Below are positions 23,008 to 52,449 of a stretch of 64,000 nucleotides of DNA, in pieces. The DNA comes from a virus (taxonomy: Duplodnaviria; Caudoviricetes). Below the pieces are notes generated by a model, which saw only the letters and a list, made by a program, of their open reading frames with translations, had not been told where the DNA came from and ran no database searches. The stretch covers positions 32,001 to 96,000 of IMG/VR virus record IMGVR_UViG_3300027563_000002; one strand, written 5' to 3'. Both the position numbers and the translations under genes were made by a program. Each line of letters starts with the position of its first letter. The stretch's first letter is position 1.

Positions 23008-23088
23008 ATGCTCACTTCAAGCCTTGCGGTAGCGAATCGCTCAGCCTGCCCAGCAGCCGGGCCACACGGTCCTAAGGTAGGTGTGATC
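23008..23088 (-). ncRNA. Candidate structured RNA, unassigned
   Basis: GC-rich, three adjacent stems (UCACAC/GUGUGG, GCCCGG/CUGGGC, AGGCU/GGCUU) plus possible pseudoknots. Confidence 0.45.
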
Positions 23089-24007
23089 GGTTGAGTGATT
23101 CATTCAGTCCTTGAATCACACGTTGTATTTGTTTTAATCGTTGATAATGTTGTTCAGATTCGCGCCCGCGATAGTAAGCACTGCCTTCGGCGTAGTTGTA
23201 ATCGGGATCACGGCGTTGCTCAGCATCAGCCACCAGTTCATCAATGTTGGGGTATCGGGCAGTCAAATCACGACGATGTTTTTCGGCATCATGTGCGGGA
23301 GGTGTGTATGGTTGGCGTCTTGCATCTGCACGTGCCAGGCCCCGCTCTCTTTTGGCAATGGTCTGATCGGCTGCTGCAACTGCGGCAGGATCGTTACGGT
23401 CAAAGAATCGGTTTGTCTGAGCCATGGCCCTGCTCATGGTGGCTTTTTTACCATAGTCGCCTAGGCTGACTTCCGCCACACCTCGTTTTCGTGAGTTAAC
23501 ATAGGCTTTGTATTCTTTTTGTGCCGCTTGATGCACTGCATGATTTGTAGTGAAATCTTTATACTTGTCGCCCTGCTTCAATACCCATGTGGCAAAGTCA
23601 AACCACTTGACCCCGGTATCATTATTTGCCTCCGCCACACCTTGCTCCGGCAATACGCCTTTAGGACCTGCCATTGGTTTTGTTTGAATTTGCTTCTTAA
23701 TTAAATCGTGCTTGTCTTGGTCAGGTCCAGCAGATGCCATTATATCATCAAAGTCTCGGGTGGCAACACGCAACCTCTCCATGTCTTTGTTAGTCCATTG
23801 ACGATCTTTCTTGCTGCCTTCCGCCATGCCTCGATCGGTACTTTCGCCACCGCCATCTCCACCGCCTTCACCAGATTCACCACTGCCATAGTAACCATAA
23901 CCTGGAAAGAAGTATCCACCCATTGCCCTTGAAGATTTTTTCTTTCTATTTTTCTTTGCCTCTTCAACACCTGGTTTTTTATTATTGAATAAATCGTTGA
24001 TGATCAT
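23072..24007 (-). CDS. Modular putative head-packaged protein (four GVAE-type junctions)
   Basis: MIINDLF start; PGVEE, RGMAE, QGVAE, RGVAE separate unrelated segments. Confidence 0.75.
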   Translation of the reverse strand: MIINDLFNNKKPGVEEAKKNRKKKSSRAMGGYFFPGYGYYGSGESGEGGGDGGGESTDRGMAEGSKKDRQWTNKDMERLRVATRDFDDIMASAGPDQDKHDLIKKQIQTKPMAGPKGVLPEQGVAEANNDTGVKWFDFATWVLKQGDKYKDFTTNHAVHQAAQKEYKAYVNSRKRGVAEVSLGDYGKKATMSRAMAQTNRFFDRNDPAAVAAADQTIAKRERGLARADARRQPYTPPAHDAEKHRRDLTARYPNIDELVADAEQRRDPDYNYAEGSAYYRGRESEQHYQRLKQIQRVIQGLNESLNRSHLP

Positions 24008-24009
24008 GA

Positions 24010-24942
24010 TTATCGTTCTTCTATGTAATCTGTGTCGGAGTTGCGTTGCTGTGCTTGGCGACGAGCTTGAAACAACTTCACGGCTATACCAGCATCATCC
24101 AGGCTGCGAAAGCGACTGGGCAATGTCTTGCCACCACGACGCAGTTCATATCCTTGATCATCATCGCCACAACATTCCAAGGCCACACCGTCGGCCATTT
24201 CAAATGTGGCCACAGGCGCCTGTGGTGCGCCAAGTTTGTTGGCCACATCCAGTTCAGCAGCATGTGCCACTTCGGTATCGCCAGGATCTGACGGACCTTG
24301 CATGGCAGCAGGATCTGTATCTATTTCTTCATTCAAATCCAATTCACTGTGTGGGAAAGCCATGTAACTGTTGCCATTCTCATCACCAGCACGTATTACA
24401 AATACCCCAGCATCATCATCACCGGACTCGTCTTGACCAATTTCCCAGCCCATTGCTGCCAAGGTGTCCTGTGCCTTGGCCATTTGTTGTTCTGTGCCGT
24501 TCCACCATTGCGCAGCTAGTTGACGCAGAATTTCTTCCTCATCAGGCTCACGGTCGTCTCCACCAGGCAACGCAAATTCATCAAGATCTTCTTCGGCCTT
24601 GCCCTTTTGTACAGCGTCAACTGCTTTGTCTTTCAAGTCACGGTCAACATGCACCTTCTTTTCCAACCGGTCCAGATATGTTGTGAGGTCTCGTTTGACC
24701 TTGCTGATCATGTCTTCTTCAATCTCGGCCATGGCTTCTTCCAGTGCAGTACGCTTGGGCTCCACGGAGTCGCCGACCATGTAGCCATCCATGGGATGAG
24801 CAGGGTCTGTTTTTGAGCCCAACGCACGAATGTTACGAGGCTTGAACAGTGCAGGCAACTGTGGTACCTTTTGTTGTGCTGGACTCAATCGGCCTTCCAC
24901 TGTGGCCAGTCGGTCTAAGATTGATCTGATGTCGTTGCTCAT
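24010..24942 (-). CDS. Acidic hypothetical protein, probable virion internal protein
   Basis: MSNDIRSILDRL start overlapping the dps stop; LDE/LNE sites; ends DYIEER. Confidence 0.7.
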   Translation of the reverse strand: MSNDIRSILDRLATVEGRLSPAQQKVPQLPALFKPRNIRALGSKTDPAHPMDGYMVGDSVEPKRTALEEAMAEIEEDMISKVKRDLTTYLDRLEKKVHVDRDLKDKAVDAVQKGKAEEDLDEFALPGGDDREPDEEEILRQLAAQWWNGTEQQMAKAQDTLAAMGWEIGQDESGDDDAGVFVIRAGDENGNSYMAFPHSELDLNEEIDTDPAAMQGPSDPGDTEVAHAAELDVANKLGAPQAPVATFEMADGVALECCGDDDQGYELRRGGKTLPSRFRSLDDAGIAVKLFQARRQAQQRNSDTDYIEER

Positions 24943-25379
24943 GCTCGTTGGTCTTTCAGATAACTGCGCAGTTGCCATTGATACTTGCCGTGTTGACCCA
25001 GGCGTCCTGCCACGAAGTCAGCAATGCCCTGTTGGTTTTCTTGTTCAGCAGCAGCAAAGCATTGGTTCAGTAGGTCGATCATTTGTTGGGTGTTGGCCAG
25101 CAGTTCTTCGATCATGAGTCGGGCACGTGGGATACGGCTTTGTTCATTAATCACAGTGAGTTCGGCAAAACGTTCCATGCTGCCGGGAGCGTATTCGTCA
25201 AGATATCTAATGTATTCTGCTGTTTGATCTAGTGCACCATAGGCGTCTTCGTAGATTTCCTGGAAAAAATTATGCAGTTCGCTGAAGTCAGGACCTTCCA
25301 CATTCCAATGAAATTGGTGTGCTTTGAGGTAGTAGACAAAATTAGTTGCCAATAGAGTTTTTAAATTGTCCGCGAGCAT
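24939..25379 (-). CDS. dps: Dps-like ferritin
   Basis: KAHQFHWNVEGPDFSELHNFFQEIY, DQTAEYIR, HGKYQWQLRS. Confidence 0.92.
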   Translation of the reverse strand: MLADNLKTLLATNFVYYLKAHQFHWNVEGPDFSELHNFFQEIYEDAYGALDQTAEYIRYLDEYAPGSMERFAELTVINEQSRIPRARLMIEELLANTQQMIDLLNQCFAAAEQENQQGIADFVAGRLGQHGKYQWQLRSYLKDQRA

Positions 25380-25843: not shown

Positions 25844-25851
25844 ATCAAATC

Positions 25852-27015
25852 TCAGTGGAACATCAGGAATTGATTGGCCACGTCCAGTCGGCTGGCACCT
25901 AAATCACCGTGTCCTGCAGGGAATACCACAACGTTCCATTTGGGAGCAGGACCTTCGGGTATGCGATTCATCTCGTCATATGTGATCACAGTGTTGGGAT
26001 CAATATTGTACTTGGCACCCAAGTCTTGACGGAACTGCTGCCAGGCTCCTGCGCTCTTTACTTGTGTGCGGCCTTTTTCATCTTTCACATACTTGCCCTT
26101 GGCATCGGTCACAAACAAGTCACGGAACATGTCCTTGGGCAAGGTCACAGCGTCTTTCACATGCCGGCCAGCATCACGCTGTAGTTGAACTGTTTTGACT
26201 TCACGGCTCTTGGCACCTGGTGAGAACTGTTTGACCACGTTGTTGGGTGTGTCAGGGTCTGTTACTATTTCGCCCATCTTGGTGTAGAAATAGAATTTTA
26301 CATCAGGATTGTTCCGGGCCACATCCATCATCAAGTTGTAGTATTCTTTTGAAAAGAAGTCACCAGCGTCATGTATGCGCACCAACAGCTTGATGCCATT
26401 CTTGCTGGCCAATGCAGCGGCTTTTTTGACTTCACCGTCAAACTTTGCCATGTAGTCTGAAGGATGATTAACCAAGAAGTTCAAGGCCTGTGCCGCGCTC
26501 ATTGAGCTGGCTGGGAACATCACATAGCCGCCTTTTCTGGCATAGCAGTAGGTTTGGCATTCGCCAGCACCTGGGCAGGTGATCACTTCCACAAACTCAC
26601 CGGTTTCTTCATCTACCACAATGCCACTCAAGGCCGGCAGGGTCAAGTCATATGTGATGGCGCCTTCTTGTTTGCTCTTGGCCATTTTGGCATTGGTGCC
26701 CAGAATCTGTCTTGGCGGCTGCATGATCTGACTTTTCAGATCCGCCAGATCCCACTCTGTGCCACCGTCGTCTCGAGTGATGGCCTTGATATTGCTGCCG
26801 TGTATGATGGGCTTGAACTTGTCAGCCTTGGTCTTGGTGCCAGTCTTGATACGAGTGGCATAGTCTTGCATGTCTTGTTTTGACATCGCACGTTGAGGCG
26901 CATCCAGTTTGAGTGCTTCGTCTGTGGCGCCTTGTTCCACATTCAGTACTTTGATGGGAAATCCACCCAGGGTTGGGCCGCGTTCGGCAGCTTCTACAAT
27001 TTGTTGTATTCTCAT
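25852..27015 (-). CDS. Gp88-like Cys-motif protein
   Basis: LPA...TCPGAGECQTYCYARKG and RIHDAGDFFS, FYFYTK; MRIQQIVE N-terminus. Confidence 0.65.
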   Translation of the reverse strand: MRIQQIVEAAERGPTLGGFPIKVLNVEQGATDEALKLDAPQRAMSKQDMQDYATRIKTGTKTKADKFKPIIHGSNIKAITRDDGGTEWDLADLKSQIMQPPRQILGTNAKMAKSKQEGAITYDLTLPALSGIVVDEETGEFVEVITCPGAGECQTYCYARKGGYVMFPASSMSAAQALNFLVNHPSDYMAKFDGEVKKAAALASKNGIKLLVRIHDAGDFFSKEYYNLMMDVARNNPDVKFYFYTKMGEIVTDPDTPNNVVKQFSPGAKSREVKTVQLQRDAGRHVKDAVTLPKDMFRDLFVTDAKGKYVKDEKGRTQVKSAGAWQQFRQDLGAKYNIDPNTVITYDEMNRIPEGPAPKWNVVVFPAGHGDLGASRLDVANQFLMFH

Positions 27016-29978
27016 TTTCTTTTGGCCTTTGCTCTGCCGGCTTTCATGTTGGCCAGCCAGTGGGCCATGCGTTGCTTTTCACCTGATGAATTCTTTGCTG
27101 TTTTACGCAGACTGCTGACTGACGCTTTGGTATCGACTCCCGAGCGTTTGGCCAGGCCTTTGCGTCCAGGATTCTTACCGTCAGCAAAGTTTTCCGCTAC
27201 ACCTTGCTGTATTGTGCTTAGTCTAGCAAGTTCTTGTTCGCCTTCAGGAGTCAAAAACCAATAGCCGTCAGCATCTACAATCCATCCAGCATCATATAAA
27301 CTGTCATACACTCTGCTTTGAGCACGACTTAGGCTTTGACTATCTTCTTGAAATCCCAATCCATGATCATTTGCAACTTCAATAGCTTTGAGTAGCAAGG
27401 CCTTGCCATAACCTTTACCGCGCACATCATCAGTCACTTCTGCCTGATTGTGTACGTCATCAGTTTCGGGATCTCTAAAAAATGAAAAATGCCCAACATT
27501 TTTTCCATCAGCGATTGCAGTGACAGTAAAACTACTTTGATAATTGTCAGTAGATGCTGTTTGGAATTGTACTGTCGAAGCGTCAGCTTCATGAACCTGG
27601 TCTTCCGCCACGTCTTGCTTGTTGGACCAAAGCAATTGGCCTTCTTCTTGTGCTATGAGGTGTATGTTGTATCCTGGATGGGTGGGTTGTATGTCATAGT
27701 TGTCAAAGTGAGAAGATAATTTTTGTAATATTCTCACCACGCCAAGATACTGATCACCCACAAGATCATCAGGTACCACTACCAAGATATCAGTGTCACT
27801 GTTTTTACGATGTTTGCCTGTGGCACGACTGCCATGGAACCAAATTTCTTGTGCTATGGGCATGACTTTGAGTATGGCATCAACCACTGGCTGACCTGGT
27901 TGTTTGCCCTCCGCCACACCTTGTTTCAAATAGCCCCATTCGTCCTTGCTTGTACGATCACGCCTGGCAATGTCTCTGCCTTTTAGTTGATCTTCTCTGC
28001 GCTTGTCGCCCGCGGCACGTAGTTTAGCAACCTTGCCATCATCTTTATTAGCAAGACGACCTGCGGTATTGACCATGGCATTGCTTTCGCCTGCCGCCAC
28101 ACTTTCTTTGACCACAGCAGGCACTGTTTCGTCACCCAGCAGGTTCAACAAAAATGTTCTGTGATGTCCGTCTTGCAAGTGATATGAGCCATCTGGCAGG
28201 GCAGACACTGTGATGGGATTCTTTTGTACAAATTGTCGTAGGCGTTGTTGGGCAGCAGGATCGGCCTTTAGCGCATCCACCAGTTCGCGCATGCTCATGT
28301 CTGGAGACACCTGCATGCCAGCAGCATGAGTCAACACATCTGCTGCTTGTTCTATATTGACGCCTTGTGTGCCAATGGCACCATTGGCCCGGCGCACATT
28401 GGCAATGGGAAAATTCTCAATGTCTTCACGCAAGTTCACAGTCTTCATCAACAGACCAGGCTCGCCATTGCGACCTGTGTTCAAGGCCAGCTTGTTGGCT
28501 TCCCGGCCAGTCTGTCCAGGTTTGATATCCACACTCAAGGCCATGGCATACTGTGGCATGGCAGCTTCACGCTTGTTCTTGGGAATATATCCTGATGCAC
28601 CTTCGCCCAAGGCCGGCAATTCAAAATGTTCAGGATGACTGTTGGCCCAGTCACGCATGATGATGCCTGCTCGTGCATTGGCATCATTTTCCCAACGTGA
28701 TCCAGTTTCGCCCGCGTCGTCAGGCAAGCCGTTGTATTGTTGATTTTGACTGCAATGCACCAGTTCATGTGCCACAGTGCGCAACACATCCAGGATATGA
28801 CGATTGGGCATGCTGACATTGAGTGTGTGGCTGTCAGGATCGTAACGACCAAAACTGTGATTGCGTGTGCTCCATTCAGGATCGTTGTGCAAATGAATTT
28901 TGGGCATGGGATCAATGCCCAGTTCTGTGGCAGTGTGTTGAATAAACTCCTGTACCAGATTGGTTTCAGGAGAGGAATCTTCTAAAAATTGTTTGGTGCT
29001 GGCAGCCACGCCATCTTCTGAACTGTAGGGCTGACCTTGATGCCCTTCTTCAACTCCGCCAGTCCAGGGCTTGACAGGAGTTCGAGCTATCTTTTGAATT
29101 TTTTCTTGGCGTTCAGCTTCGCGCTGTTTTTTTACTTTTTCGTATTCATAGGGACTGCGAAATACTTCTTGTTTCGATGTTTTGGCATCAGCATCAACGG
29201 CTGCTCGCATGTCTGCCCAACTGGCTTCGTCAACTTCTGTGCCATAGCCATAACGAAATGGCCTTGCAGGAGTTTCACGCAGGCTGAGTTCTCGATCTTG
29301 TTGTGCGGTCATGGCATCTTTGAGCAACTTGATGCAACCACTGTTGCGCAACAACTTGAAAGAGATATTTTCACAACCAAATTCGCCTTGTTGTTCAAGA
29401 CCGCTTTGGCGCATGGTCTTGATCTTGTTCCACAGTGTGCTGATGGTTTTTAAATTGTGTGACTTGACGGCGGCATGTATTCTGGCATCCAGGTCTGCTG
29501 TTTTGTCACGCACACAGGTGTCATCTATCTGAGCACGTTTGCGCTGTGGTACTTGACGCCACTCTGAATCCTGGATTGAGTAAATGCCTTGGCTGTGATG
29601 TGGCTGATCTGCAGACTGCACATACAGTTCTACATCAGCGCCACCAATCCGTATGTTGTGCTCGTTGTTGTACTGATACTTCTTGGCTGTGAACAATTCC
29701 TGGTACACAGGATTGTCGGGCATTTCTACCACAAGATGCAGATCAATGTCTGAATTTTTTGTATAGGAGTAGGCTGCGTTTGAGCCTGATATGGTGATGT
29801 CTTGGATGTTGAGATTGTCAACACCCAAGAATTCTTGAAAGTCTGCTGCAATGGTCAGTAGCTTTTCACGCACTTCGGGCAGCAAGTGCTCGTCTCGCCC
29901 CCAAATTCTGGGGTTGAGACGGCGGTGAAATTTTACTGCGTCGCCAAGATTGTAGGAGTCCAACTCATGAATGTTCAT
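27012..29978 (-). CDS. Polyvalent protein: nucleotidyltransferase, HExxH metallopeptidase, ParB-like, second nucleotidyltransferase, GNAT, basic C-terminal module
   Basis: SGSN..SDIDLH; VAHELVH; LQDGHHR; HGSRATG..SDTDIL; RGKGYGKALL. Confidence 0.85.
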   Translation of the reverse strand: MNIHELDSYNLGDAVKFHRRLNPRIWGRDEHLLPEVREKLLTIAADFQEFLGVDNLNIQDITISGSNAAYSYTKNSDIDLHLVVEMPDNPVYQELFTAKKYQYNNEHNIRIGGADVELYVQSADQPHHSQGIYSIQDSEWRQVPQRKRAQIDDTCVRDKTADLDARIHAAVKSHNLKTISTLWNKIKTMRQSGLEQQGEFGCENISFKLLRNSGCIKLLKDAMTAQQDRELSLRETPARPFRYGYGTEVDEASWADMRAAVDADAKTSKQEVFRSPYEYEKVKKQREAERQEKIQKIARTPVKPWTGGVEEGHQGQPYSSEDGVAASTKQFLEDSSPETNLVQEFIQHTATELGIDPMPKIHLHNDPEWSTRNHSFGRYDPDSHTLNVSMPNRHILDVLRTVAHELVHCSQNQQYNGLPDDAGETGSRWENDANARAGIIMRDWANSHPEHFELPALGEGASGYIPKNKREAAMPQYAMALSVDIKPGQTGREANKLALNTGRNGEPGLLMKTVNLREDIENFPIANVRRANGAIGTQGVNIEQAADVLTHAAGMQVSPDMSMRELVDALKADPAAQQRLRQFVQKNPITVSALPDGSYHLQDGHHRTFLLNLLGDETVPAVVKESVAAGESNAMVNTAGRLANKDDGKVAKLRAAGDKRREDQLKGRDIARRDRTSKDEWGYLKQGVAEGKQPGQPVVDAILKVMPIAQEIWFHGSRATGKHRKNSDTDILVVVPDDLVGDQYLGVVRILQKLSSHFDNYDIQPTHPGYNIHLIAQEEGQLLWSNKQDVAEDQVHEADASTVQFQTASTDNYQSSFTVTAIADGKNVGHFSFFRDPETDDVHNQAEVTDDVRGKGYGKALLLKAIEVANDHGLGFQEDSQSLSRAQSRVYDSLYDAGWIVDADGYWFLTPEGEQELARLSTIQQGVAENFADGKNPGRKGLAKRSGVDTKASVSSLRKTAKNSSGEKQRMAHWLANMKAGRAKAKRK

Positions 29979-29993
29979 AAGTTGTATTTACCG

Positions 29994-30920
29994 TTACACT
30001 GCGGCAGCGGCTTTCTTGCTCTTTTTGCTTGATGCCATTACCACAGGTTCGGCTGTGGGCACTGGATCAACAGCCAGTTCATGTGCTGTGGCAGGCAGCT
30101 CAACAGCCGGCGCCGCAACAATATTGGGCTCAAACATCACTTTGAGATCCTTGTACAGTTGCTCGTGTGTGTTGTAGTCAAATGTGTATGAGCCCACATG
30201 ACGCAACAAAATGCGCTTGTCCACATACACTTTGCCGCCCAGATCACGCCAGTTTTCACAGAATGTCCAGTCTTCCGAGTAGTAGCGATTTTCGCGCACA
30301 GCAGTATCAAAATAGGTTTTCATGTAGGGATTCAGTTCTGCAGGCAGACCAATGTCGTTGTTGAAAGGTCTAGTGGCAGGATGCTCATTCAATTTCTCAA
30401 ACACATCACGCTTGATCAACAAGAAGCCTGTGCCTGTTTTTGTGACTTCAATCAGCTTGCCATCCGGTTCGTCGGGCTGTCCAGGAATGCCGTTCACACA
30501 CCATTTGACTGGCAGACTCTTCATGGGATACAATCCACCGATCACGTCTTTTTGTGCATCCAGCATGACCAACAGGTGCCAGGGTTCCCAGCCAATGTCA
30601 GCGTCAATAAACATCAAGTGTGTGCTTTCTTTGTTGTGCAAGAACTTGGCAGTAAGAGTGTTTCTGGCACGTGATATCAAGCTCTCATTGGTCATGGTTT
30701 CCACTGTCCAGTCAATGTTCAGTTGACGGCACATGTTGGCCCATTTGATATAGCTCATGAAACACTGTTCGGTCAACTGTCCACCATAACAAGGCATACA
30801 GATATGCACTCGTGTGGTACGCAAATAGTCAATATTTACTTGTATGTTGTTCTGATTTGTTTGTACAGGATCAGTTGGGGGTACAGTAGTAGGCACTGCA
30901 TCAGCTTGGGTGTCAGACAT
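29994..30920 (-). CDS. GT-A fold glycosyltransferase-like protein
   Basis: MPCYGG, ESLISRARN, FIDADIGW, GTGFLLIKRDVF, SEDWTFC, HVG. Confidence 0.8.
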   Translation of the reverse strand: MSDTQADAVPTTVPPTDPVQTNQNNIQVNIDYLRTTRVHICMPCYGGQLTEQCFMSYIKWANMCRQLNIDWTVETMTNESLISRARNTLTAKFLHNKESTHLMFIDADIGWEPWHLLVMLDAQKDVIGGLYPMKSLPVKWCVNGIPGQPDEPDGKLIEVTKTGTGFLLIKRDVFEKLNEHPATRPFNNDIGLPAELNPYMKTYFDTAVRENRYYSEDWTFCENWRDLGGKVYVDKRILLRHVGSYTFDYNTHEQLYKDLKVMFEPNIVAAPAVELPATAHELAVDPVPTAEPVVMASSKKSKKAAAAV

Positions 30921-30976: not shown

Positions 30977-31888
30977 TTACGACCGACGTTCTTCCACATA
31001 GTCTTCATAAGTGGCAGCCCAGCCTTGGTTTTCGTTTGTTTTGGGTTGACTACGAGCAATACTTATAGTGTATCCTTGCAGTCCTTTTTTGGATAATATG
31101 TTGTCCACAAATTCTACGGCTTCTTGAGAAGTGCTAAACTTGTTTCCAAGATCAAGGTGTTTAGTATCATTACCAATTTTTACAATAGCTATAAAATTGG
31201 GTCTGGCAATTTCCTGTGCGCCTAAAGCGCCAGCGGCAGCCATGCCCGCGGCAGCAGTTGTGCCTTGAAGGAATCCTCTGCGGCTGATGTCTTCTGCCAC
31301 GCCGCCAATGTTCTGATCAAATATACGCACAATATCCTGTGCGCCTGCTGGATCTTTTTGCGTTGAAGGATACAGGCTCATTACCAGAGCCATACGCCGT
31401 TTGGGAGTCAGCTGAGGCCAAGCTGCACGAATTTGAGAGGCTGATGTAAATGCGCCAGGTCCAAATTCTATTGTGGGCAAATACGCCATGTAGGCATGTT
31501 TGCCAAATGGTTCCAGTCGCTTGGCACCCAACAACGGCTGCAAATAACTAGCAGATCCGTCTTTTTTTACACCGCCAGCATGTGGAGGGTTAGCAGCATC
31601 TTTTTCTGACCGTACAAAGATAATTGTGTCACGATCGGGGTTGTATTGACTGGTAATTTCCATGGCCTGAAAAGGTGACTTGACCTGCACAAAGTGTCCA
31701 GGTTCTACACCTGCAGCATAGGCAATCTTTTGTTTTTCTGAGATATCAAAAGGCCTGTCACTTTTGTCATTGGTAGCAGCCACATACACTTCGGCATCAG
31801 GAAAAGCTCGTTGTGCCGATTGATACAGGGCCAAGTGTCCTGGATGAAAAGGGTGAAAACCCCCGGGCATGATTACTACAGTTGTCAT
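30977..31888 (-). CDS. Cytidylyltransferase-like (HIGH) protein with an appended Tat-motif cassette
   Basis: PGGFHPFHPGH, SASQIR; then GGVAE-DISRRGFLQGTTAAAGMAAAGALGA. Confidence 0.8.
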   Translation of the reverse strand: MTTVVIMPGGFHPFHPGHLALYQSAQRAFPDAEVYVAATNDKSDRPFDISEKQKIAYAAGVEPGHFVQVKSPFQAMEITSQYNPDRDTIIFVRSEKDAANPPHAGGVKKDGSASYLQPLLGAKRLEPFGKHAYMAYLPTIEFGPGAFTSASQIRAAWPQLTPKRRMALVMSLYPSTQKDPAGAQDIVRIFDQNIGGVAEDISRRGFLQGTTAAAGMAAAGALGAQEIARPNFIAIVKIGNDTKHLDLGNKFSTSQEAVEFVDNILSKKGLQGYTISIARSQPKTNENQGWAATYEDYVEERRS

Positions 31889-31903
31889 AAACTGTATTTA
31901 GCG

Positions 31904-32338
31904 TCACATGTTTTCCAGCAACCACAGATAAAAAGGTGTAGAAAATTCAAAACTGATTGTGCCATTGCAACCAGCTGTGCCAAAAAATTGATCTGATATT
32001 TCGGTCCGTGTGCCATTGAAATTGTGATGATATACCGACTTTTCGTAAATCACCTGATCAATATTGATGCCATCAACGGTGACATTAGATATTGTCAATG
32101 TGGCATCTTTGACAATATTTCCTGTTTCGTCAACCTCAGTATGATCAGCAGTTTTGCCTGACATCACAATTTGAAGGCTGTGAGAACTGTCATCATCGGC
32201 CAGCTCATGTTCAACATGACATAGACCTTCAACATTAGTATTGGTATAGAATATTTTGCCATCTAATAGAACTTGCACACCCAATGATGCCTGAGCATCT
32301 GAGGTGTTGATATCGAACTCAATTTTGATTTTGTCCAT
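31904..32338 (-). CDS. Hypothetical protein
   Basis: Beta-rich ORF ending PFYLWLLENM. Confidence 0.7.
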   Translation of the reverse strand: MDKIKIEFDINTSDAQASLGVQVLLDGKIFYTNTNVEGLCHVEHELADDDSSHSLQIVMSGKTADHTEVDETGNIVKDATLTISNVTVDGINIDQVIYEKSVYHHNFNGTRTEISDQFFGTAGCNGTISFEFSTPFYLWLLENM

Positions 32339-32879: not shown

Positions 32880-33578
32880 CTATTTAGTCGTTTCAATGGC
32901 CATGGTCTTTCTTACAATACCCGGCATCACCAGACTCAGCATGGTGCCTTCGTTGGGATGATCATGATCCACAAAATAATGGGCTCGAGAGTAGTTGCGG
33001 TTTAGAACATAACCAGACGACATGCCAATGGTCAACCATGCCATCAATGAGCCACAAGGCTGCAGGGTATCTTTTCTTGAGTTCAAAAAATTGGCCAGCA
33101 TGAGCCGTTGATCATAGGTGTATTTGCGTTCTCTAAAATAAGTTCTGTACGCATACTTTGATTCCTGCAACTGCACCACACCCACTGGGAGAGAAATTAC
33201 TGCTTGTCGTACCAGTCGAACCCTGACTCCATCGTTGTCTAAGTGGATCAATCGATCAGCCAGACCGCGGTGATTGATGTATATACTCACAGTGTTGAAA
33301 CTGACCACAGTTTTGAACGGTACAGTTTCACTCAACAATACCTCACGAGTTTCGCGCAGGGCAGTTTCTTTGGTAATGCTCCAGGCCCGATCAGTCCATC
33401 GATCATTCTCAGCCCAGTATTTGGCATTACGGATGGCTGCTTCAAATCTACCAGGCTCTAAGTTCCGCAGGCAAGCGGCCTCAGAAATGTTGATGGTTAT
33501 GCACCACTCGTACTGATTGTAGTACAAACTGCTGCGATGATCCAGCTCAACTTTATACAACAATGATTCCGTCGGCAT
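32880..33578 (-). CDS. Hypothetical protein
   Basis: 232-aa ORF following clpA. Confidence 0.7.
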   Translation of the reverse strand: MPTESLLYKVELDHRSSLYYNQYEWCITINISEAACLRNLEPGRFEAAIRNAKYWAENDRWTDRAWSITKETALRETREVLLSETVPFKTVVSFNTVSIYINHRGLADRLIHLDNDGVRVRLVRQAVISLPVGVVQLQESKYAYRTYFRERKYTYDQRLMLANFLNSRKDTLQPCGSLMAWLTIGMSSGYVLNRNYSRAHYFVDHDHPNEGTMLSLVMPGIVRKTMAIETTK

Positions 33579-39306: not shown

Positions 39307-39567
39307 TTATTTTATGTTGTTGAATATTTGTTGTTGTTTTTGATACCATTCAATCCAGGCATCTGTTTTGACCGCACACTCATAGTAGGTGCCATAGTTT
39401 ATTGTCACAGTTTTGGCAACATCACTTAGTTGAGCATCTTCGGCAATTTTTTGCAATTGTGGACAACGAGACAATGCAAGGCCACTGGGTGCGTCGGGAA
39501 ATGTGCTTGTGACAGGTACCACAGTGCCACATCCAGTCAACAACAATGATAACAGCAAGACTTTCAT
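39307..39567 (-). CDS. Outer-membrane spanin (Rz1-like lipoprotein)
   Basis: Lipobox LLTG-C, FPDAP, C...YYECA..WIEWY. Confidence 0.75.
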   Translation of the reverse strand: MKVLLLSLLLTGCGTVVPVTSTFPDAPSGLALSRCPQLQKIAEDAQLSDVAKTVTINYGTYYECAVKTDAWIEWYQKQQQIFNNIK

Positions 39568-40295
39568 CAGCAGTTCCAACGACGACGGGCTTTGCATATG
39601 GCCTTGTCAGGAGTCTTGGCACAACTGATGCTGTGCATTTTCATTTGTCCACGACTGCGGCTGCAATAACTTTTTCTACGCTTGGATGCCTTACTACCAC
39701 GTTTGAGTTTTGAGGGTTTGGTAGTCACAGCAGTTTTTAATTTTGAGCCAGGATTTTCTCTACGGTAAGCATTCACAGCCTTTTGACTCATGCCTGCAGT
39801 ACGATCACGCTTGTTGGCTTTTTGCCAATCTTCTGTTACACCTTGCTGACTGTACATATCCATTAGTTGTCGAACATAAAAATTATAAAAACCACGACGG
39901 CCGTTGTATTCTCTGTTTCCCAGCACAGTTTTTAGTGCGGCTACAGCATCATTTGATTCTGAACCCTGCATTATTTTTAATGCGTCAGTGACCAGCGAAT
40001 CAACTTGTTGTGTGTTTTCCGCTATGTCTTGTGATTCCATAATGGGCTCTGACGTCACAGCAAAAGCATACAGTTCATCTTCTGTGAGTGTTTCCAAATC
40101 CTCCCAGATCACTTCAGCATCCACACCGTTGTGCTCGGCCAGGCGTTCAATGATTGATTCAATAAGATCAAACTCTTGCTCAAGCTCTGCGCTTTCGTTC
40201 TTGGGCTTCTTGCCGGCTTTTTTCATGGCAATGGCAATGGCCGCTTGCTGCGGATGTGCCGACTTGGCTTCTGTTACAATTTCAGTTATTTTCAT
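39567..40295 (-). CDS. Modular putative head-packaged protein with basic C-terminal domain
   Basis: MKITEIVTE start; QDIAE and QGVTE flank an insert; YRRENPGSKLKTAVT..RRKSYC..RWNC. Confidence 0.8.
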   Translation of the reverse strand: MKITEIVTEAKSAHPQQAAIAIAMKKAGKKPKNESAELEQEFDLIESIIERLAEHNGVDAEVIWEDLETLTEDELYAFAVTSEPIMESQDIAENTQQVDSLVTDALKIMQGSESNDAVAALKTVLGNREYNGRRGFYNFYVRQLMDMYSQQGVTEDWQKANKRDRTAGMSQKAVNAYRRENPGSKLKTAVTTKPSKLKRGSKASKRRKSYCSRSRGQMKMHSISCAKTPDKAICKARRRWNC

Positions 40296-41958: not shown

Positions 41959-41968
41959 TACCTACTTA

Positions 41969-43213
41969 ATGAACGTTCTAATTCTCACGCCAGATGCAGT
42001 AGGCAGCACTTTATTGCAACGCATGTTGACCATTTACATGCAATTTCATAATTTTGGCCGTCCTGTTATTAACCTACACGAACTGACCAATGGGCTTGCT
42101 AGATACTACAGCCCCGAATTCAATCAAGAATTGGTCAGTAAACATGCCTTAAAAAAATGGGGATATCATCAGTCACTGGAACAAGTGGTTGAGGTGTTGA
42201 GCAGTGTTGATCATTACAAAACATCAAGACTTGCACACTACCATATTGTTCAACGCGGGGACTCCCAGGCTCAACAAATTCCATTTTACAATTATCTCAA
42301 TGAGAATTTTTTCATAATTGCCTGCCGGCGTGAGAACGTGTTCGAGCATGCTGTTAGCATGACTCTCAATACTGTGACAAAGAAACTCAATGTGTACAAT
42401 GTGTATGAAAAAGTAGACACTTTTTATGACATGTACAAATCCGGGGTGGTATTAGATGCGGCAGTATTTGAGCGTAAGTTGGACGCATACAAGAAATATG
42501 TGATCTGGAGCGAACAGCATTTTGATATTGGTGCATATTTCAATTACGAAAAAGATGTGCCAAGACTTGAACAATACATCCTAAACCTGCCGGTATTTGC
42601 TGCACAGAACAATCTTGTGACCTGGGATCAAAATTTTGGGATTAGTTTCAATGACTGGAATCAAGTCCACTATATCCGCAGTGACCCGGCTGCACTGACG
42701 TGCATGCCCAGTCAGACCAGTGAAAAATTGTTGTTGACCATTGCAGACCCAGTGACCGAGTACCAACAACACAGTCGATTCGAAATGCCCGCTGTTAATT
42801 CAGCAGCGGACCTGGCGGCCTTGCCCCCGGATGTGGCCGAAACCTGGGCTAGTGACACAGTCAGTCGCATAGGACTAGTGCCTTTTCTTAACAGAGACTA
42901 TCAACTAAGACTAAAGAAATATCAAGCTGGCTACGAAAAGGCGCAGGCCACAATAGAGCAAATGAAGCAATTGGGCATAATATTCACTGGTCCACCCATT
43001 AAAAAACAAACCCTAGGTGACAAACACCGAATAATTAAAAATTTCGACGAATTGATCCAAGTCTATAATCAATGGCATGAGATCAATCCCGAATTTGGCC
43101 AGGCCATGAGCAGTGAAATCATGCAGAGTCAGATATCGCAAGAATATGACTTTTGGCATTCAATTACTAATTCAGCAGATTCTGCACCTGCTTTGCCACC
43201 CAGTCAGCAGTGA
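41969..43213 (+). CDS. Sulfotransferase-like P-loop protein, paralogue 2
   Basis: TPDAVGSTLL, RRENVFEHAVS; colinear with paralogue 1. Confidence 0.55.
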   Translation: MNVLILTPDAVGSTLLQRMLTIYMQFHNFGRPVINLHELTNGLARYYSPEFNQELVSKHALKKWGYHQSLEQVVEVLSSVDHYKTSRLAHYHIVQRGDSQAQQIPFYNYLNENFFIIACRRENVFEHAVSMTLNTVTKKLNVYNVYEKVDTFYDMYKSGVVLDAAVFERKLDAYKKYVIWSEQHFDIGAYFNYEKDVPRLEQYILNLPVFAAQNNLVTWDQNFGISFNDWNQVHYIRSDPAALTCMPSQTSEKLLLTIADPVTEYQQHSRFEMPAVNSAADLAALPPDVAETWASDTVSRIGLVPFLNRDYQLRLKKYQAGYEKAQATIEQMKQLGIIFTGPPIKKQTLGDKHRIIKNFDELIQVYNQWHEINPEFGQAMSSEIMQSQISQEYDFWHSITNSADSAPALPPSQQ

Positions 43214-44030
43214 CTATATCAAAGTGATGCCCGTCACGTGCTCGATCCAGATATTCCACTCTGATGACATCAGCTAGATACTTGGGATTTTGCTGTAGTA
43301 TGGTGTAGAATTCCAACAGTTGGTCTATATCTATACCATGCAGTGTGCGCAGTTCAGCCGCAATAGCAGAAGACAAATCTTGGAATTCTTCAAGAGTTGG
43401 CGGCAACAACTGTGGCCAACTGGGATCACGTATTCTTTTCCAAGCAGCGTCATCAAATGATGTAACAAAGTTGGGAATCACAAGTTCTATTATATTCGAA
43501 CTGGCACAGTATACGCGAACTTGTTTTCTACAGGAATAAAAATTTTCAAAATCTTGGAGCATGGTTGATCGGACAAAATGCAATCGTCGATTCAGGTCAG
43601 ACTGGTTACGGTTGACATTTTCTCTACGATGCGGATAACTCCACATCAGTACCATGTTGCGTGGTTGTGCCAGGTCATATGCATCACATGCCTGGCGAGC
43701 CATCCATTCATTGCTGGCTCCGTCCATGCTTACGTTGATCACACGACGCTGACTGTGTTGGCTCAGTACCTGGGACCAGGTGTGCTCAACACAACTGCCA
43801 AGGCCCACAGTGAAGCTGTCGCCAATGCACCACACAGCTGAATTCAAATCCTGAGGCCATTCCTGATCTCGAAATCCTCGGCTGTTGTAGTTGTAATTCA
43901 CAGGGTGCGGCCATTGACGAAATAAATTTTTGTCCAGGCACCTATTAAGACTGTCTATGCCAGAATTAGTAGACTGCTGGTTGACCAATTTTGATATTAT
44001 TAACTTGCTGATCTCTAATTTGTTATTCAA
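43167..44030 (-). CDS. SGNH/GDSL-like hypothetical protein
   Basis: YNSRGFRD, IGDSFTVG, NVSMDGASN, RDGHH. Confidence 0.65.
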   Translation of the reverse strand: MNNKLEISKLIISKLVNQQSTNSGIDSLNRCLDKNLFRQWPHPVNYNYNSRGFRDQEWPQDLNSAVWCIGDSFTVGLGSCVEHTWSQVLSQHSQRRVINVSMDGASNEWMARQACDAYDLAQPRNMVLMWSYPHRRENVNRNQSDLNRRLHFVRSTMLQDFENFYSCRKQVRVYCASSNIIELVIPNFVTSFDDAAWKRIRDPSWPQLLPPTLEEFQDLSSAIAAELRTLHGIDIDQLLEFYTILQQNPKYLADVIRVEYLDRARDGHHFDIVTADWVAKQVQNLLN

Positions 44031-44832
44031 GGCCTAGGCTTTTTCTTATATTGGTCGCAGAGATATTGGTAATGGCTTGATCAAATGATTCCTGCTCAAT
44101 CTTGTAACCTACGTCTCGACCATATGTGATGTTGACAATGTTGGGCACCACTTGAATTTCGTACTGTCCTTGATACATCATGTCTAGATCTCTGCGTATA
44201 TAATTCTTTACTTGATCAATGGCAAATGGATTTGATCCTTGCCAGCCCTGACAGTCTCTGATTTGTATCACAACTTGTCCGGTTTTGGCAATAGCACGTT
44301 CAAATAACGCACGATGGCCCGCATGCCAGGGCTGCCAGCGGCCCAGCATTTGCACAGTTTCCCGCTGCCAGTCAAACACAGGCCTACGACGATTGTCTAG
44401 AATATGCGCAGCAATGAATTCTCCCCATTTTTCACCATGTTGTTCGGTGATTCTAAAGTCGTAGACTTCGGGAGCAACAAAGGCCCGATTTGTGTCCTCG
44501 TAGCGGCCACGGTCAATGGTGTCAACCCATATGGTCCAGTCGGCTTTGAAGTTGTTGCGCATTTCTACCAAGGGTGCCACAAAGTCACAGATCACATAGT
44601 CTGTGTCTGTCATTGCATCTGCTAGACTACGCATACGCACACTTTGACGAATACGCCCGGCGTCGCTGAAATCCCAGTCGTTATGCTCTTTACGCACATC
44701 GTCGGCATTGAGCCAGCGCACACGTTTCTTTTCGGCCTGCAAGTGCTCGAGTATCTGCTGTGCCAGATAAGTTTTGCCTGCACCGGGCAAGCCCATGATC
44801 AAAATACGTTGTGTGATTTTTGTGTTACTCAT
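44023..44832 (-). CDS. cysC: Adenylylsulfate kinase-like domain fused to a HIGH nucleotidyltransferase domain
   Basis: GLPGAGKT, NADDVR, DFSDAGRIRQ; GRWQPWHAGH, ISATNIR. Confidence 0.8.
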   Translation of the reverse strand: MSNTKITQRILIMGLPGAGKTYLAQQILEHLQAEKKRVRWLNADDVRKEHNDWDFSDAGRIRQSVRMRSLADAMTDTDYVICDFVAPLVEMRNNFKADWTIWVDTIDRGRYEDTNRAFVAPEVYDFRITEQHGEKWGEFIAAHILDNRRRPVFDWQRETVQMLGRWQPWHAGHRALFERAIAKTGQVVIQIRDCQGWQGSNPFAIDQVKNYIRRDLDMMYQGQYEIQVVPNIVNITYGRDVGYKIEQESFDQAITNISATNIRKSLGLE

Positions 44833-46925: not shown

Positions 46926-47497
46926 AATGAGTTTATCAAGTCTAGAATGTAGGGTCTTGTGTGGGTATTTACAGCACGTTCTGGATGCCATCCTATGCCC
47001 AGTTGGCGATTTGCTTTATGTATCACCAATTCCGCAATGCCAGCAGAATCTTGTTGTAATACTTCGAATCCTGATGCAAGTCGATCTATGCATATGGTGT
47101 GATGACACGTGACTTCAAATGCTGGCAATTGTATGCGTACATTATCATAAGGTTGATCCATCAACCTCACAGTGCCGCCGGATTCTAAGTTTAAAAAGTG
47201 GCTGCCTCTACAGATACCAATCAACGGAGTGCGCGATATCAAACATTGCCGAATCAACCGATGTTCAAACTCATCACGCAAGGGATACACATTGTTACGC
47301 CAGGTGTTGAACTTGACTGTGTCATTTCCACCAGTTAACACAATCAAATCAAATTCGTCTGTATTGGGCTCTTGACCATGACATGATAGTGGAACAATTT
47401 CGCGTCCAGCAAACAAGTCATACCATTCGTGATTTAAGGCCGCATGCCACGTATCACGTAGCACACGGGTCATTTCCATGCTGATACCTATTTTCAT
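46922..47497 (-). CDS. Class I glutamine amidotransferase / peptidase C26
   Basis: LTGGND, RDEFE, GICRG, WHPE. Confidence 0.85.
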   Translation of the reverse strand: MKIGISMEMTRVLRDTWHAALNHEWYDLFAGREIVPLSCHGQEPNTDEFDLIVLTGGNDTVKFNTWRNNVYPLRDEFEHRLIRQCLISRTPLIGICRGSHFLNLESGGTVRLMDQPYDNVRIQLPAFEVTCHHTICIDRLASGFEVLQQDSAGIAELVIHKANRQLGIGWHPERAVNTHTRPYILDLINSL

Positions 47498-48453
47498 TCA
47501 GGCTTGATTTTTATTGCAAAGGGCTGCCATTGTTGACGCAATTTTGTCATGGCAGCACGAATGCCTTGCGGGGTGTGCTCGTCTGGGCTGATAAAAATAA
47601 AGTGTTTGGCAAACTGTTCTTTGGCTTCTTTGCTACGAATTGCACTCACAAACTCTCGATGATACCAGTCTTGCACATCTTGTGGTGTGCCTTTGGGCAA
47701 CATCAAGTTCCAGCAAGCATATACATTCAAGCCAGGCACATGGTCCTTCATTAGAGGAGTGTTTTCTAATCCAGCAATGGGAACTTCGCTGGCCAAGCCA
47801 ATTAATTTTAGTTTGCCTGCCTGTACCATTGGTGCGCCCACTGCAATAGGGAACACACCAAACTCCTGGTGTTGGCCCATCACATCGATCATTGCCTGCG
47901 CTGGTCCCTTGTACATACTAGTTTCTACTGTGTCTTTGGCAGGTTTTACTCCTGCAACAAAGTATTCAACTGCTAACTTATGTGCTGCTCCGCCCACTGC
48001 AAATGAAATGGGACGCTGACCGGCCCGCACTTCTGCTATCAATTTCTGCGGTGTGTCAATATTGCTGGATGTCCTGGCATAGAATGCCAATGGTGCTTTG
48101 CCTATGTTGGCAACACCTTCCCAATCCATTGCGTTGAATTTAACACTGTTGGCATACCAAATTTCTGCTGTGACAAATGTTGATTGACATGAGGGCATGC
48201 CCGCATGATGGCCGTCGGCTGGCAGTTTATCAAAGTGATTCATGCCAATGTTGCCGTCGGCCCCGGGCTTGTATTCTGGGTGCCATTTAAATGATGGATT
48301 CTTTTCTTCTACAATTTTTGCTACAATGCGAAATGCTATTTCATTTCCTGCGCCCGGTGCGTTCGGAAACACAACAGTTACAGATTTTGTTGGTTGCCAT
48401 GCCGATGCTGACAAAGTGAATAATGTGAGTAGTACGCCTAATATTTTTTTCAT
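47494..48453 (-). CDS. tctC: Tripartite tricarboxylate transporter substrate-binding protein (Bug family)
   Basis: Signal peptide, WQPTKSVTVVFP, KPGADGNIG, PADGH, YKG, GKLKLIG, PKGTP. Confidence 0.85.
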   Translation of the reverse strand: MKKILGVLLTLFTLSASAWQPTKSVTVVFPNAPGAGNEIAFRIVAKIVEEKNPSFKWHPEYKPGADGNIGMNHFDKLPADGHHAGMPSCQSTFVTAEIWYANSVKFNAMDWEGVANIGKAPLAFYARTSSNIDTPQKLIAEVRAGQRPISFAVGGAAHKLAVEYFVAGVKPAKDTVETSMYKGPAQAMIDVMGQHQEFGVFPIAVGAPMVQAGKLKLIGLASEVPIAGLENTPLMKDHVPGLNVYACWNLMLPKGTPQDVQDWYHREFVSAIRSKEAKEQFAKHFIFISPDEHTPQGIRAAMTKLRQQWQPFAIKIKPE

Positions 48454-48469: not shown

Positions 48470-48494
48470 AAAAAAGGGGAGTGATCGGCTCCCC
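48470..48494 (-). terminator. Rho-independent terminator
   Basis: GGGGAG-CCGATCA-CTCCCC-TTTTTT just after the ferritin-like gene stop. Confidence 0.85.
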
Positions 48495-48501
48495 GTACAA
48501 A

Positions 48502-49200: not shown

Positions 49201-49294
49201 GTGGTCTCCTTGGATATATACTTAACTAAAAACAAAGGAAGCTGCAAATTTTTGCTTTCTTTGTAAAATTATTTATCTAAAATGGAATTTTTTA

Positions 49295-50661: not shown

Positions 50662-50692
50662 GCAGATATGTATCTGCTGCGGCCTGCGGAGA

Positions 50693-51253
50693 TTATTTTC
50701 CTGCTACTGCCAGGCCGGCGCCTTTGTTGAAACTGGGGCTCCAGGAATTGGCTTGGCGTAGGCCTTTCCTCTTGCTCCACTCATATCCGGCTCGGTGTCC
50801 CGAACAGTCTTTGGTGCATTCGGATCCTAAGAAGCTGAGTTCTCTCAGCTGATCGCGTGTCCACTTGTCAGGAATCACGCCGTGTTTGGCCACGAACTTG
50901 TCATGCAATTGCCGGCCGGTAATGCCGTGGTCACGAGCAATGGTCTGCATCATGTGATCAATTGCACTGTAGCTTTTGGGATTGTCAAGATCTTTTTCCA
51001 AATCTTCCACTGCACCTTCCGCCACTGTGTTTGTTTTGACTTTTTTGCCTTGTACCGCAGTGGTCCGGTTGGGTTCATCTGCGCTGTCTGGTCTGGCACT
51101 GGGCATGAACTGATTTATGGTTTTTTGAGTGAGTGGTCCCAGCACACCATCAACGTCTAAATTTGCGTTGAATCGGTCATTCAACATTTTCTGTATGCGG
51201 CGAATCGATTGTTTTTTATCGTCACCTTCCGCAACAAACTCTTGTGCTCTCAT
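50693..51253 (-). CDS. Modular putative head-packaged protein with peptidoglycan-binding-like segment
   Basis: MRAQEFVAE start; LDVDGVLGPLT; TVAEG junction; CTKDCSGHRAGY. Confidence 0.75.
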   Translation of the reverse strand: MRAQEFVAEGDDKKQSIRRIQKMLNDRFNANLDVDGVLGPLTQKTINQFMPSARPDSADEPNRTTAVQGKKVKTNTVAEGAVEDLEKDLDNPKSYSAIDHMMQTIARDHGITGRQLHDKFVAKHGVIPDKWTRDQLRELSFLGSECTKDCSGHRAGYEWSKRKGLRQANSWSPSFNKGAGLAVAGK

Positions 51254-52449
51254 TTTCTTGGTGGTTGAACTGCTGTGGGCACGTTTCGGTACACACGTTT
51301 GGCAGGATCGTACACAGTTTTCATGGGACCCAGTCCGGCCAGCTTTTTGACTCTAGCAACCATGGCATCGTATTCATCATCGTAGTCAACTTCTTCGGGG
51401 TCACGGTAGTCCGCGCCCTTTTGTTGCTCACCTTCTGCCATGCCTGGTTGTTGTGCACCACGAATGGCCTGCAACAACGCCCTAGCAACCACACGGTCTT
51501 TTTCTTTTTCTTCTTCAGGCAACTGAGCATAGTTTTGTTTCATCAACTGTGCTCGCTGTTGAAGTTTGGCTTCTAGTTTGCCGGCTGCGGCCAACTTTGC
51601 TGTGTCGTCAAACTGTTTGGGATCTTGTACAAATGCCTGTGCAGTGGTATTCCATCCTTTGTGGATGGCATCACTTATGGCTTCAATGTCTGTCACACCT
51701 TGATCGATCATCTGTTTGGCATAGGCAGCTGACTTCAAGTTGGCCTGCCAGCCAAATGTGTTGCCTGGTGTGCTACGACCGTAGCCGTATGCTTGATCCA
51801 ATGCTGTATCACTTATGGTGGCCAACTGTTGTACACTGAGTGGCTGACCGGCATTTTCTCCCACACTGCGGCGGAAAAGTTTGGCATCATTAGCATCGTG
51901 TTTGCCGCGTTCTAGACCTTTTTCCCACTCGTCGTATTTGCGAGCTTGTTTTGTGGCACTGTAAGGATTGTCCTTGATAGTTTTGCGTTCTTGGTATGCG
52001 CGGCGGCCAAGTTCGTAAGCCACACCTACTCCAGCCAGTTCATACTCTTCCGCCACACCTTGTCCCAACACTTGACGAACTAATAGTTCAGGAGCAAAGT
52101 CCATATCACCGGCTAGTTCTCTTGCAGCCATCAACACTGCTTGTTTAGTTGGCTGTAATCTTTTTTCTTCTACATCTCTACGAAGTTTAAAAATAAGAGA
52201 TTGTGCATCATACCCTAAATCTCTAACACCCTCCTCTACACCTTCTGACTTGTTGCCATAGTTGCCAGCACCTTTTTTGCGGCACTGTACCAAGCGTCCG
52301 GACGCATAGGCTGAAGGCCACACCTTGGCCGACGCTTTGACCTTGTAGTAACAAGCGTCTTTCTTTTCAGCCAGGATCAAGTCTGAGAAACTGATACCGC
52401 CGCATTCGGGGCATGGTTGCGGGGCTTCAAAAAGTTCGTCTATAATCAT
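51250..52449 (-). CDS. Modular putative head-packaged protein including a RyR-like module
   Basis: MIIDELFE; EGVEE, QGVAE, SVGE, PGMAE junctions; AIHKGW...YAQLPEEEKEKDR. Confidence 0.78.
   Translation of the reverse strand: MIIDELFEAPQPCPECGGISFSDLILAEKKDACYYKVKASAKVWPSAYASGRLVQCRKKGAGNYGNKSEGVEEGVRDLGYDAQSLIFKLRRDVEEKRLQPTKQAVLMAARELAGDMDFAPELLVRQVLGQGVAEEYELAGVGVAYELGRRAYQERKTIKDNPYSATKQARKYDEWEKGLERGKHDANDAKLFRRSVGENAGQPLSVQQLATISDTALDQAYGYGRSTPGNTFGWQANLKSAAYAKQMIDQGVTDIEAISDAIHKGWNTTAQAFVQDPKQFDDTAKLAAAGKLEAKLQQRAQLMKQNYAQLPEEEKEKDRVVARALLQAIRGAQQPGMAEGEQQKGADYRDPEEVDYDDEYDAMVARVKKLAGLGPMKTVYDPAKRVYRNVPTAVQPPRK

Follow-up and report, generated by a model that had tools for sequence, protein, structure and literature searches.

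How is a phage protein assembled from unrelated parts, and why should the joints between these parts share the same short run of DNA? The question is raised by seven minus-strand genes in a window of 64,000 nucleotides, bases 32001-96000 of a 110-kb IMG/VR viral contig (CheckV completeness 32%). The source of the window is an uncultured lake phage from a clade of giant, T4-related freshwater phages of ~350 kb. The genes encode polyproteins whose modules are separated by variants of the peptide QGVAE, and the canonical linker lies in a ~19-nt word, AGCAAGGTGTGGCGGAAGG. Comparison between related phages strongly supports a role of this word as a putative crossover point. With moderate confidence we favor a joint reading in which the genes encode cargo polyproteins and the word would be both a crossover point and a prohead-protease cut site.

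The 988-aa polyvalent polyprotein (27012..29978, minus strand) illustrates the architecture. It begins with a nucleotidyltransferase (NTase; residues 1-311), continues with a part containing a zincin-like HELVH and a ParB-like DGHHR motif (312-629), a 61-aa basic module (630-690), an MNT-type NTase (691-792) and a GNAT domain (793-929), and ends in a basic 59-aa tail module, NFADGK... (930-988). Matches were obtained to Pfam NTP_transf_2 (5e-11) and Acetyltransf_1 (9e-6), to PHROG 36119 (2e-42) and to ParB PHROGs (~3e-4), while ParBc_2 and Tox-MPTase3 (13 bits, E = 0.09) stayed below threshold. The protein thus holds at least two unrelated effector-type domains (NTase, ParB-like, MNT and GNAT), the mark of a polyvalent protein. 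Megablast of the gene against cultured phages gave no match, and tblastn against the same set found single modules only, in cyanophages, pelagiphages, Maribacter phages and Lak phages. An AlphaFold2 model from a 5-row alignment had a mean predicted local distance difference test score of 42.5, too low to place the linkers in disordered stretches. Throughout the set, Pfam and PHROG matches span single segments, and homologs of the segments stand alone or are placed elsewhere in other phages, which bears out the proposal that the genes are strings of separate modules.

All junction motifs listed by the sequence-only reading are present in the window, on the minus strand and in frame. The canonical linker word CAAGGTGTGGCGGAG (QGVAE) lies at 27909..27923. 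Other exact or near-exact copies, 15 nt each, are found at 23471, 23630, 27192, 27603 and 52048, and peptide-level or decayed copies of the same length at 23819, 28092 (ESVAA), 40017 and 51017. Six looser copies are real, though decayed: PGVEE (23960), GGVEE (29046), GGVAE (31292), QGVTE (39831), PGMAE (51433) and EGVEE (52231). The 15-mer CAAGGTGTGGCGGAR has 13 matches at up to three mismatches where 2.9 are expected, all of them on the minus strand and most in frame within the named genes; none of 100 shuffles reached this number. In the proteome of the 110-kb contig GVAE occurs seven times (0.67 expected) and [QR]G[VM]AE six times (0.08 expected). The suspected enrichment of one alanine codon was found as well. 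GCG makes up 8.1% of alanine codons contig-wide but is used at 10 of the 12 [VIM]AE sites of six of the genes, compared with 2 of 25 [VIM]AE sites in other genes and 3 of 109 other xAE sites, so that neighboring-codon context is not the cause at the linkers. In contrast, the claim that some bracketed modules are AT-rich did not hold, as the GC content of the three modules (0.40-0.42), ranked among contig windows of equal size, falls at the 14th-16th percentile and is not significant.

An IMG/VR protein-based search with the 988-aa protein yielded 77 loci which, having been picked by protein homology and not by a DNA motif, form an unbiased codon sample. In 100 unique GVAE contexts from these loci we found GGT in 91% (background 39%), GTG in 86% (26.5%), GCG in 78% (7.4%) and GAA in 82% (80.5%), preceded by CAA in 59%. 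Information content across the related contigs defines the word from -5 to +14, AGCAAGGTGTGGCGGAAGG(C), constant at silent sites and with an abrupt drop to background on both sides; the dominant boundary peptide is K/E-Q-G-V-A-E-G. The word is non-palindromic, and every copy lies inside an open reading frame (ORF), in frame. Among the IMG/VR matches listed for the exact 15-mer (80 loci), 102 of 110 read as QGVAE within an ORF of 100 aa or longer, and the flanks are essentially different for each. Relatedness was gauged by the family-B DNA polymerase (PolB), encoded in the window at 17418-20078, which shares 95% amino acid identity with that of G003 (225 kb), 86% with G004, 82% with G001 and 71% with G002 and G005. 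The exact 12-mer occurs twice in G001 and seven times in G002, the two complete relatives of ~350 kb each (G001, with 352,754 bp and direct terminal repeats, is rated 100% complete). These copies lie in polyprotein loci only, and the reversed control gave 0; the word thus belongs to a single class of genes, which rules out a Chi-like or genome-wide role. In G003/L019, the closest relative by PolB, the exact 12-mer count is 0.

Letter-level conservation could also reflect a role in RNA or translation, in which an internal Shine-Dalgarno (SD)-like AAGGUG and the rare GCG codon would pause ribosomes for co-translational folding, or the word would be a site for an RNA-binding protein or nuclease. 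The word does hold AAGG(U)G and a rare codon, and GGA/GAG-type SD sequences stand ahead of starts in these genes. However, conservation is even over ~19 nt and not centered on the SD-like core, neither GGT nor GTG is a rare codon, no start codon lies downstream at a distance suited to initiation, and no complementary copy of the word is found on the opposite strand of the contig. As such a role would also leave the homology breakpoints at the word unexplained, we consider it very unlikely.

These breakpoints emerge when the window is aligned with its relatives, whose modules have been gained, lost and swapped at the motif, as had been anticipated. In locus L007 (78% identity) the MNT module and the N-terminal parts (NTase, zincin-like and ParB-like) keep the order that they have in the window, while the GNAT module is replaced by an unrelated module of ~400 aa, with borders QDVAE/QGMAE on one side and QGVAE/QGVTE on the other. 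In addition, a window-specific 61-aa insert lies between ESVAA, the decayed copy at 28092, and QGVAE. Alignment with G003/L019 by blastn gave blocks of 80-88% identity whose ends fall at 28104, 27918, 27598 and 27199 for the 988-aa gene, and for genes 51250 and 50693 at 51859, 51433, 51227 and 50842. A hydrophobic-x-Glu boundary is found at all eight of these ends, being ESVAA, QGVAE, QDVAE and QGVAE in the former and SVGE, PGMAE, the point where the leader MRAQEFVAE ends, and QLRE in the latter. The MNT cassette follows QGVAE in the 988-aa gene of the window but sits right after the leader MRAQEFVAE of the gene-50693 ortholog in G003, in place of its first modules. Similarly, the ParB-like part is fused in frame in the window and forms a separate gene with the leader MRAHEFL... 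in G003/L019 (L019 9222-10526), an arrangement that shows how near relatives differ by the fusion or fission of genes at such a boundary.

The same pattern is seen in larger samples. Among 193 polyprotein ORFs, high-scoring segment pairs of at least 70% identity ended at the motif in 37-44% of cases on the left and 29-35% on the right, compared with 3-6% for random positions. Junction pairs with a common 15-aa flank shared it on one side only in 249 cases and on both sides in 2. A test on vertically inherited junctions (both flanks the same, DNA diverged) found only one usable pair, a scarcity of two-flank junctions that is itself evidence of turnover. Variants also segregate in lakes. Independent assemblies contain contigs that match the window arrangement over three to four word copies without a mismatch, while a lake metagenome contig (X9) joins 27920 to 28104, omitting exactly the 183 nt between two copies, and another (X7) departs from the window at 27196, inside the copy at 27192-27206. 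Assembly chimeras are ruled out, since the independent Logan contigs that span three to four copies with 0 mismatches come from 2019 and 2025 lake samples. Overall, the freshwater and lake metagenomes in which the window stretch is present come from ~18 studies, dated 2017 to 2025.

Codon concordance locates the break more finely. Variants of the word track the upstream module from position -2 to the Glu codon and return to baseline at +1; pairs that share the downstream module are concordant mainly at +1. The usual place of the break is thus GAA or the position directly behind it, and the word moves along as a module's tail. This leads to the main rival explanation, in which the linker would be only a protease site or domain spacer and its DNA identity that of the conserved tail of recently spread modules (hitch-hiking, gene conversion). 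Borders would then coincide since only in-frame exchanges at domain borders survive selection, by any mechanism. In its favor, codon variants are tied mainly to the upstream module, many other hydrophobic-x-Glu variants are in use at boundaries, and G003 differs in module content without the exact word. It is unlikely in our view, as mutually unrelated upstream modules end in the same 19 nt, three silent sites included, and as the word is still ~89% identical where the common flank has drifted to ~71-73% nucleotide identity. Moreover, leader sites of the same presumed protease, introduced below, show no such fixity in DNA.

If the word is a crossover point, what moves the modules? The sequence-only reading had proposed something like an integron. 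Its module borders, its conservation at DNA level and its swap site stand, and the cut that it placed at the linker is plausible by comparison; the enzymatic integron part falls, with no tyrosine recombinase and an unstructured site. A dedicated nuclease or recombinase that recognizes the word and moves cassettes, as in a true integron-like or homing system, would agree well with the extreme letter-level conservation of ~19 nt over hundreds of contigs. However, a search for tyrosine recombinases (PF00589) gave no match in G000-G004, including the window's contig and the two complete relatives, while all control genomes matched; the word is neither palindromic nor structured; and no gene was seen to co-occur with it, although no systematic search was made. 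We hold such a system to be highly improbable. The lack of an integrase points to microhomology-type shuffling rather than an integron, and both complete relatives encode a RecA/UvsX homolog. We propose that the word AGCAAGGTGTGGCGGAAGG would be the point of in-frame gain, loss, duplication and exchange of modules, within and between genes and between co-infecting phages, by homology- or microhomology-dependent recombination through the general phage machinery (a RecA/UvsX homolog), with no site-specific recombinase. Letter-perfect words would keep recombining and spreading, whereas mutated copies (ESVAA, GGVEE, QGVTE, GCA variants) would be dead ends that decay in place. That only letter-perfect copies propagate would account for the identity at silent sites.

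The peptide side of the linker points to the phage head. In T4, gp21 cleaves L/I-x-E sites after the Glu, and a capsid targeting sequence (CTS), the 10 N-terminal residues of IPIII, suffices for head targeting (PMC9026906); related giant-phage proteases likewise cleave after Glu (PMC5694885, PMC10052503). A T4 gp21-type prohead protease (Peptidase_S77) is encoded by G001, G002, G004 and G005 (PolB identity 71-86%), and in G001 its gene sits among those for the portal, an acidic scaffold, a second scaffold and a 405-aa capsid protein. Before the NFADGK tail module, Glu occupies P1 in 32 of 32 distinct contexts and P3 is mostly V, I, L or M, while other positions vary; judged by such comparisons, Glu at P1 with a hydrophobic residue at P3 is the general boundary rule. 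CTS-like leaders of the form M-[RK]-A-x-E-F-[IVL]-x-E are present on 135 ORFs of the related loci, with an excess among those that have internal linkers (odds ratio 3.4, p = 6e-7). The T4 leader MKTYQEFIAE is close to this pattern. In the window, CTS-like leaders are carried by genes 50693 (MRAQEFVAE, 51227-51253), 39567 (MKITEIVTE) and 25852 (MRIQQIVEAAE). The modules WSQKYK, DUF6321, VSLGDY and MNT follow the leader directly in one phage and QGVAE in another, so the two kinds of boundary are interchangeable. The leaders themselves, presumably recognized by the same protease, vary in peptide and codons. As other boundary forms are used too, the protease cannot be what fixes QGVAE and its silent sites, and this fixity points to the DNA.

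Further support for cleavage comes from twin-arginine translocation (Tat)-like signals (RRGFLxGxGAA). In the window and the related loci, 12 of 12 start 1-3 residues after a hydrophobic-x-Glu, and seven of them are internal, the deepest at residue 1126. In the window, gene 30977 has such a signal, DISRRGFLQG..., at 31226-31291, where the Pfam TAT_signal profile aligns over 1-21 of its 21 positions from the first residue after the Glu of GGVAE, with 18 bits, below the cut-off. An internal Tat signal makes sense only with a cut at that point, which argues for cleavage. These data suggest a mechanism in which small modules of unrelated kinds (enzymes, basic DNA-binding-like peptides, Tat-exported proteins) would be chained in frame and divided by hydrophobic-x-Glu. 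The N-terminal leader, M-R/K-A-x-E-F-I/V-x-E, would carry the whole chain into the prohead core, where a gp21-type protease would cut each linker after Glu. The separate modules would then be packaged and ejected into the next host.

Alternatively, release could be the work of another protease (for example a host enzyme, or the zincin-like HELVH part within the 988-aa protein), or the modules could stay fused; the proteins need not be capsid cargo at all. The HELVH motif itself, the missing leader of gene 30977 and the position of the genes among replication, chaperone and metabolic genes rather than head genes speak for this; their neighbors are ferritin/Dps, ClpB-like, DnaJ, APS-kinase-like and TctC genes, with no head-gene cluster. 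However, T4 too has its internal-protein genes scattered away from the head clusters, a peptidase domain is missing from six of the seven genes, the zincin assignment is sub-threshold, and T4-like leaders are enriched on these genes. The frequency of MPTase domains in polyvalent proteins, where they are thought to self-process (PMC5512222), also speaks for such release, but Glu at P1 with a hydrophobic P3 is a gp21-type signature (PMC9026906). On balance, we regard release by another protease, or none, as quite unlikely.

Several points nevertheless weigh against the joint reading of crossover point and prohead cut site. Recombination is deduced from comparison, and what makes the linker a plausible prohead-protease site is likewise all comparative. 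At ~19 nt the word is short for RecA-type exchange. Many boundaries use hydrophobic-x-Glu variants other than QGVAE, and G003 differs in module content although it lacks the exact 12-mer, so shuffling is not strictly dependent on the canonical word. A word that travels as the tail of a module is also compatible with hitch-hiking. As for cleavage, the linker has Val at P3, not the textbook L/I of T4, the linker of gene 30977 comes without a CTS-like leader, and the start of the 988-aa gene, MNIHEL, is only weakly CTS-like. Finally, no Peptidase_S77 gene was matched on the 110-kb, 32%-complete contig. A still stronger claim, that the word is kept for a purpose, dual-coded as cut site and in-frame crossover signal and upheld by molecular drive, perhaps with a dedicated enzyme, appears doubtful to us.

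The other genes of the set, all on the minus strand, show the same construction. The 311-aa polyprotein at 23072..24007 has five segments divided by PGVEE, RGMAE, QGVAE and RGVAE and no family matches; its last module comes after GVAE or a CTS (ILSE) in other contigs. The seventh gene of the set, at 25852..27015, encodes a GP88-domain protein (Pfam GP88, 3e-30) with a CTS-like leader and a decayed linker, GATDE, at 26917-26931, where relatives carry GVAE, GVGE or GLDE. The 303-aa, two-module gene at 30977..31888 joins a cytidylyltransferase-like domain (CTP_transf_like, 8e-5) through GGVAE to the module with the N-terminal Tat-like signal. The 242-aa polyprotein at 39567..40295 consists of its CTS-like leader, an acidic module, QDIAE, a 62-aa module, QGVTE and a basic Cys-rich DUF6321 module (Pfam, 5e-9), which elsewhere follows GVAE or a CTS, or stands alone in cyanophages and pelagiphages.

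Genes 50693 and 51250 form a neighboring pair. The former (50693..51253, 186 aa) comprises its CTS-like leader, a 70-aa module, NTVAE and a 107-aa module. The latter (51250..52449, 399 aa) comprises a WPSAYASG (DUF5872-like) module, EGVEE, small modules, QGVAE, an RMF-like and NAGQPL module, PGMAE and a 60-aa tail. Its matches to PHROG 727, 3477 and 38880 are confined to residues 27-73, and single-module matches occur in cyanophages. Residues 10-51 of the module at 51433-52047 (minus strand) have weak similarity to ribosome modulation factor (RMF; E = 0.011, below the cut-off) and, if this is real, would represent an ejected ribosome-hibernation-like module. In L019 (11679-13315) the orthologs of the pair lie between the GP88 gene and the ferritin gene; as the window pair (50693-52449) is ~24 kb away from that place, the two genes were translocated as a unit.

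A cultured T4-like cyanophage, S-SRM01 (MW015081.1; L213 1513-3342), encodes, between the genes for its small terminase and its tail sheath, a hypothetical protein of 610 aa that consists of small Cys-rich basic modules of the same families as here (WSEKYK, WPSAYASG, CWDGYKK and DUF6321). Its joints are VIDE, GLSE and other x-x-E, without the QGVAE word. It may serve as an experimentally tractable stand-in.

Several other features of the window were noted. Near the polyprotein genes the minus strand encodes a ferritin/Dps-like protein (24939-25379), a ClpB-like double AAA+ protein (33553-35808) and DnaJ (35885-36652), a phage-borne stress and chaperone set. An unusual auxiliary gene at 47494-48453 (minus strand) encodes a periplasmic solute-binding protein of the TctC/Bug family (Pfam, 6e-17), which has a signal peptide; this gene may point to a host of Burkholderiales type. 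On the plus strand, two paralogous genes of unknown family occupy a low-GC (0.40) island at 40816-43213 and adjoin an APS-kinase-like gene (44023-44832, minus strand), with which they may form a sulfation or glycan-modification cluster. The T4-late-promoter-like sequence TAAATA lies 6-8 nt ahead of the ATG of the 988-aa gene (29979-30000) and of gene 30977 (31889-31910), and with the same spacing at two other genes (52794-52812 and 54947-54965). Such proximity to the ATG suggests transcripts that are late and almost without a leader. The canonical T4 late promoter TATAAATA was considered and set aside, as it is not enriched in the window (3 matches compared with ~1 expected). RNA-library contigs identical to parts of the genes exist, an identity that is no proof of transcription.

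How does this system relate to those already described? The T-even internal proteins IPI, IPII, IPIII and Alt likewise have a short N-terminal leader ending in hydrophobic-x-Glu, and a gp21-type (S77) protease is present in this clade as well. Their hyperplastic loci also encode diverse, fast-evolving cargo of enzymes and small basic proteins in which only the targeting and cut signal is conserved (PMC9026906, PMC3012670). The T4 internal proteins, however, are single-module genes, whereas here there are many modules per ORF, internal cut-site-like linkers and a linker fixed in DNA; the T4 proteins are packaged and cut, whereas packaging and cleavage are here predicted from sequence comparison. 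The polyvalent proteins of phages and conjugative elements described by Iyer, Burroughs, Anand, de Souza and Aravind in 2017 (PMC5512222) are similar strings of NTase, ParB-like, zincin-like and GNAT conflict-type domains, believed to enter along with the DNA and to be split into parts by processing. That account invokes self-processing by an MPTase where we propose the head protease, and reports no shared linker or DNA-level junction word (the term 'linker' does not occur in it).

Shuffling at short repeats has precedents as well. In the promoter-early stem-loop (PeSL) cassettes of T4-type phages (Arbiol et al. 2010, PMC2839356), short repeats at module borders mediate recombinational shuffling. 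PeSLs are intergenic regulatory cassettes with a sigma70-type promoter and a terminator stem-loop that shuffle whole genes, whereas the word described here is coding and in frame, would shuffle protein modules within genes and would double as a peptide signal. Integrons share with our system the serial cassettes and the repeated boundary sequence, but rely on an IntI-type integrase, a structured attC and promoterless gene cassettes. None of these is seen here, where modules are joined in frame in a lytic-type giant phage. A full-text literature search for QGVAE returned alpha-synuclein papers only, and no publication that we found describes a junction word that is coding, in frame and fixed at silent sites and also resembles a head-protease site.

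The T-even internal proteins with leader and gp21 processing, the polyvalent proteins (PMC5512222) and short-cassette recombination (PeSL, PMC2839356) are thus already known parts. To these the window adds a map of breakpoints, resolved to the base, against a relative that is very close; one cassette found in two different genes; variants within the population, as seen in lake assemblies; and, from the Tat signals, an argument for cleavage. If the proposed mechanism is true, viruses would evolve multi-part cargo by in-frame cassette exchange at a sequence read by both recombination and the maturation protease, which would explain the fast diversification of polyvalent and ejected-protein arsenals. 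Were the word indeed dual-coded, this would amount to an exon-shuffling-like re-assortment of ejected effector modules across genes and co-infecting phages. Tat signals bared only by cutting hint that some ejected modules may be re-exported to the periplasm of the newly infected cell. Together with the MRAxEFIxE leader, the word would also provide a sequence handle for cataloging capsid cargo in hundreds of uncultured giant phages, and the arrangement would suggest a natural design in which one targeting tag brings several foreign proteins into a T4-type head.

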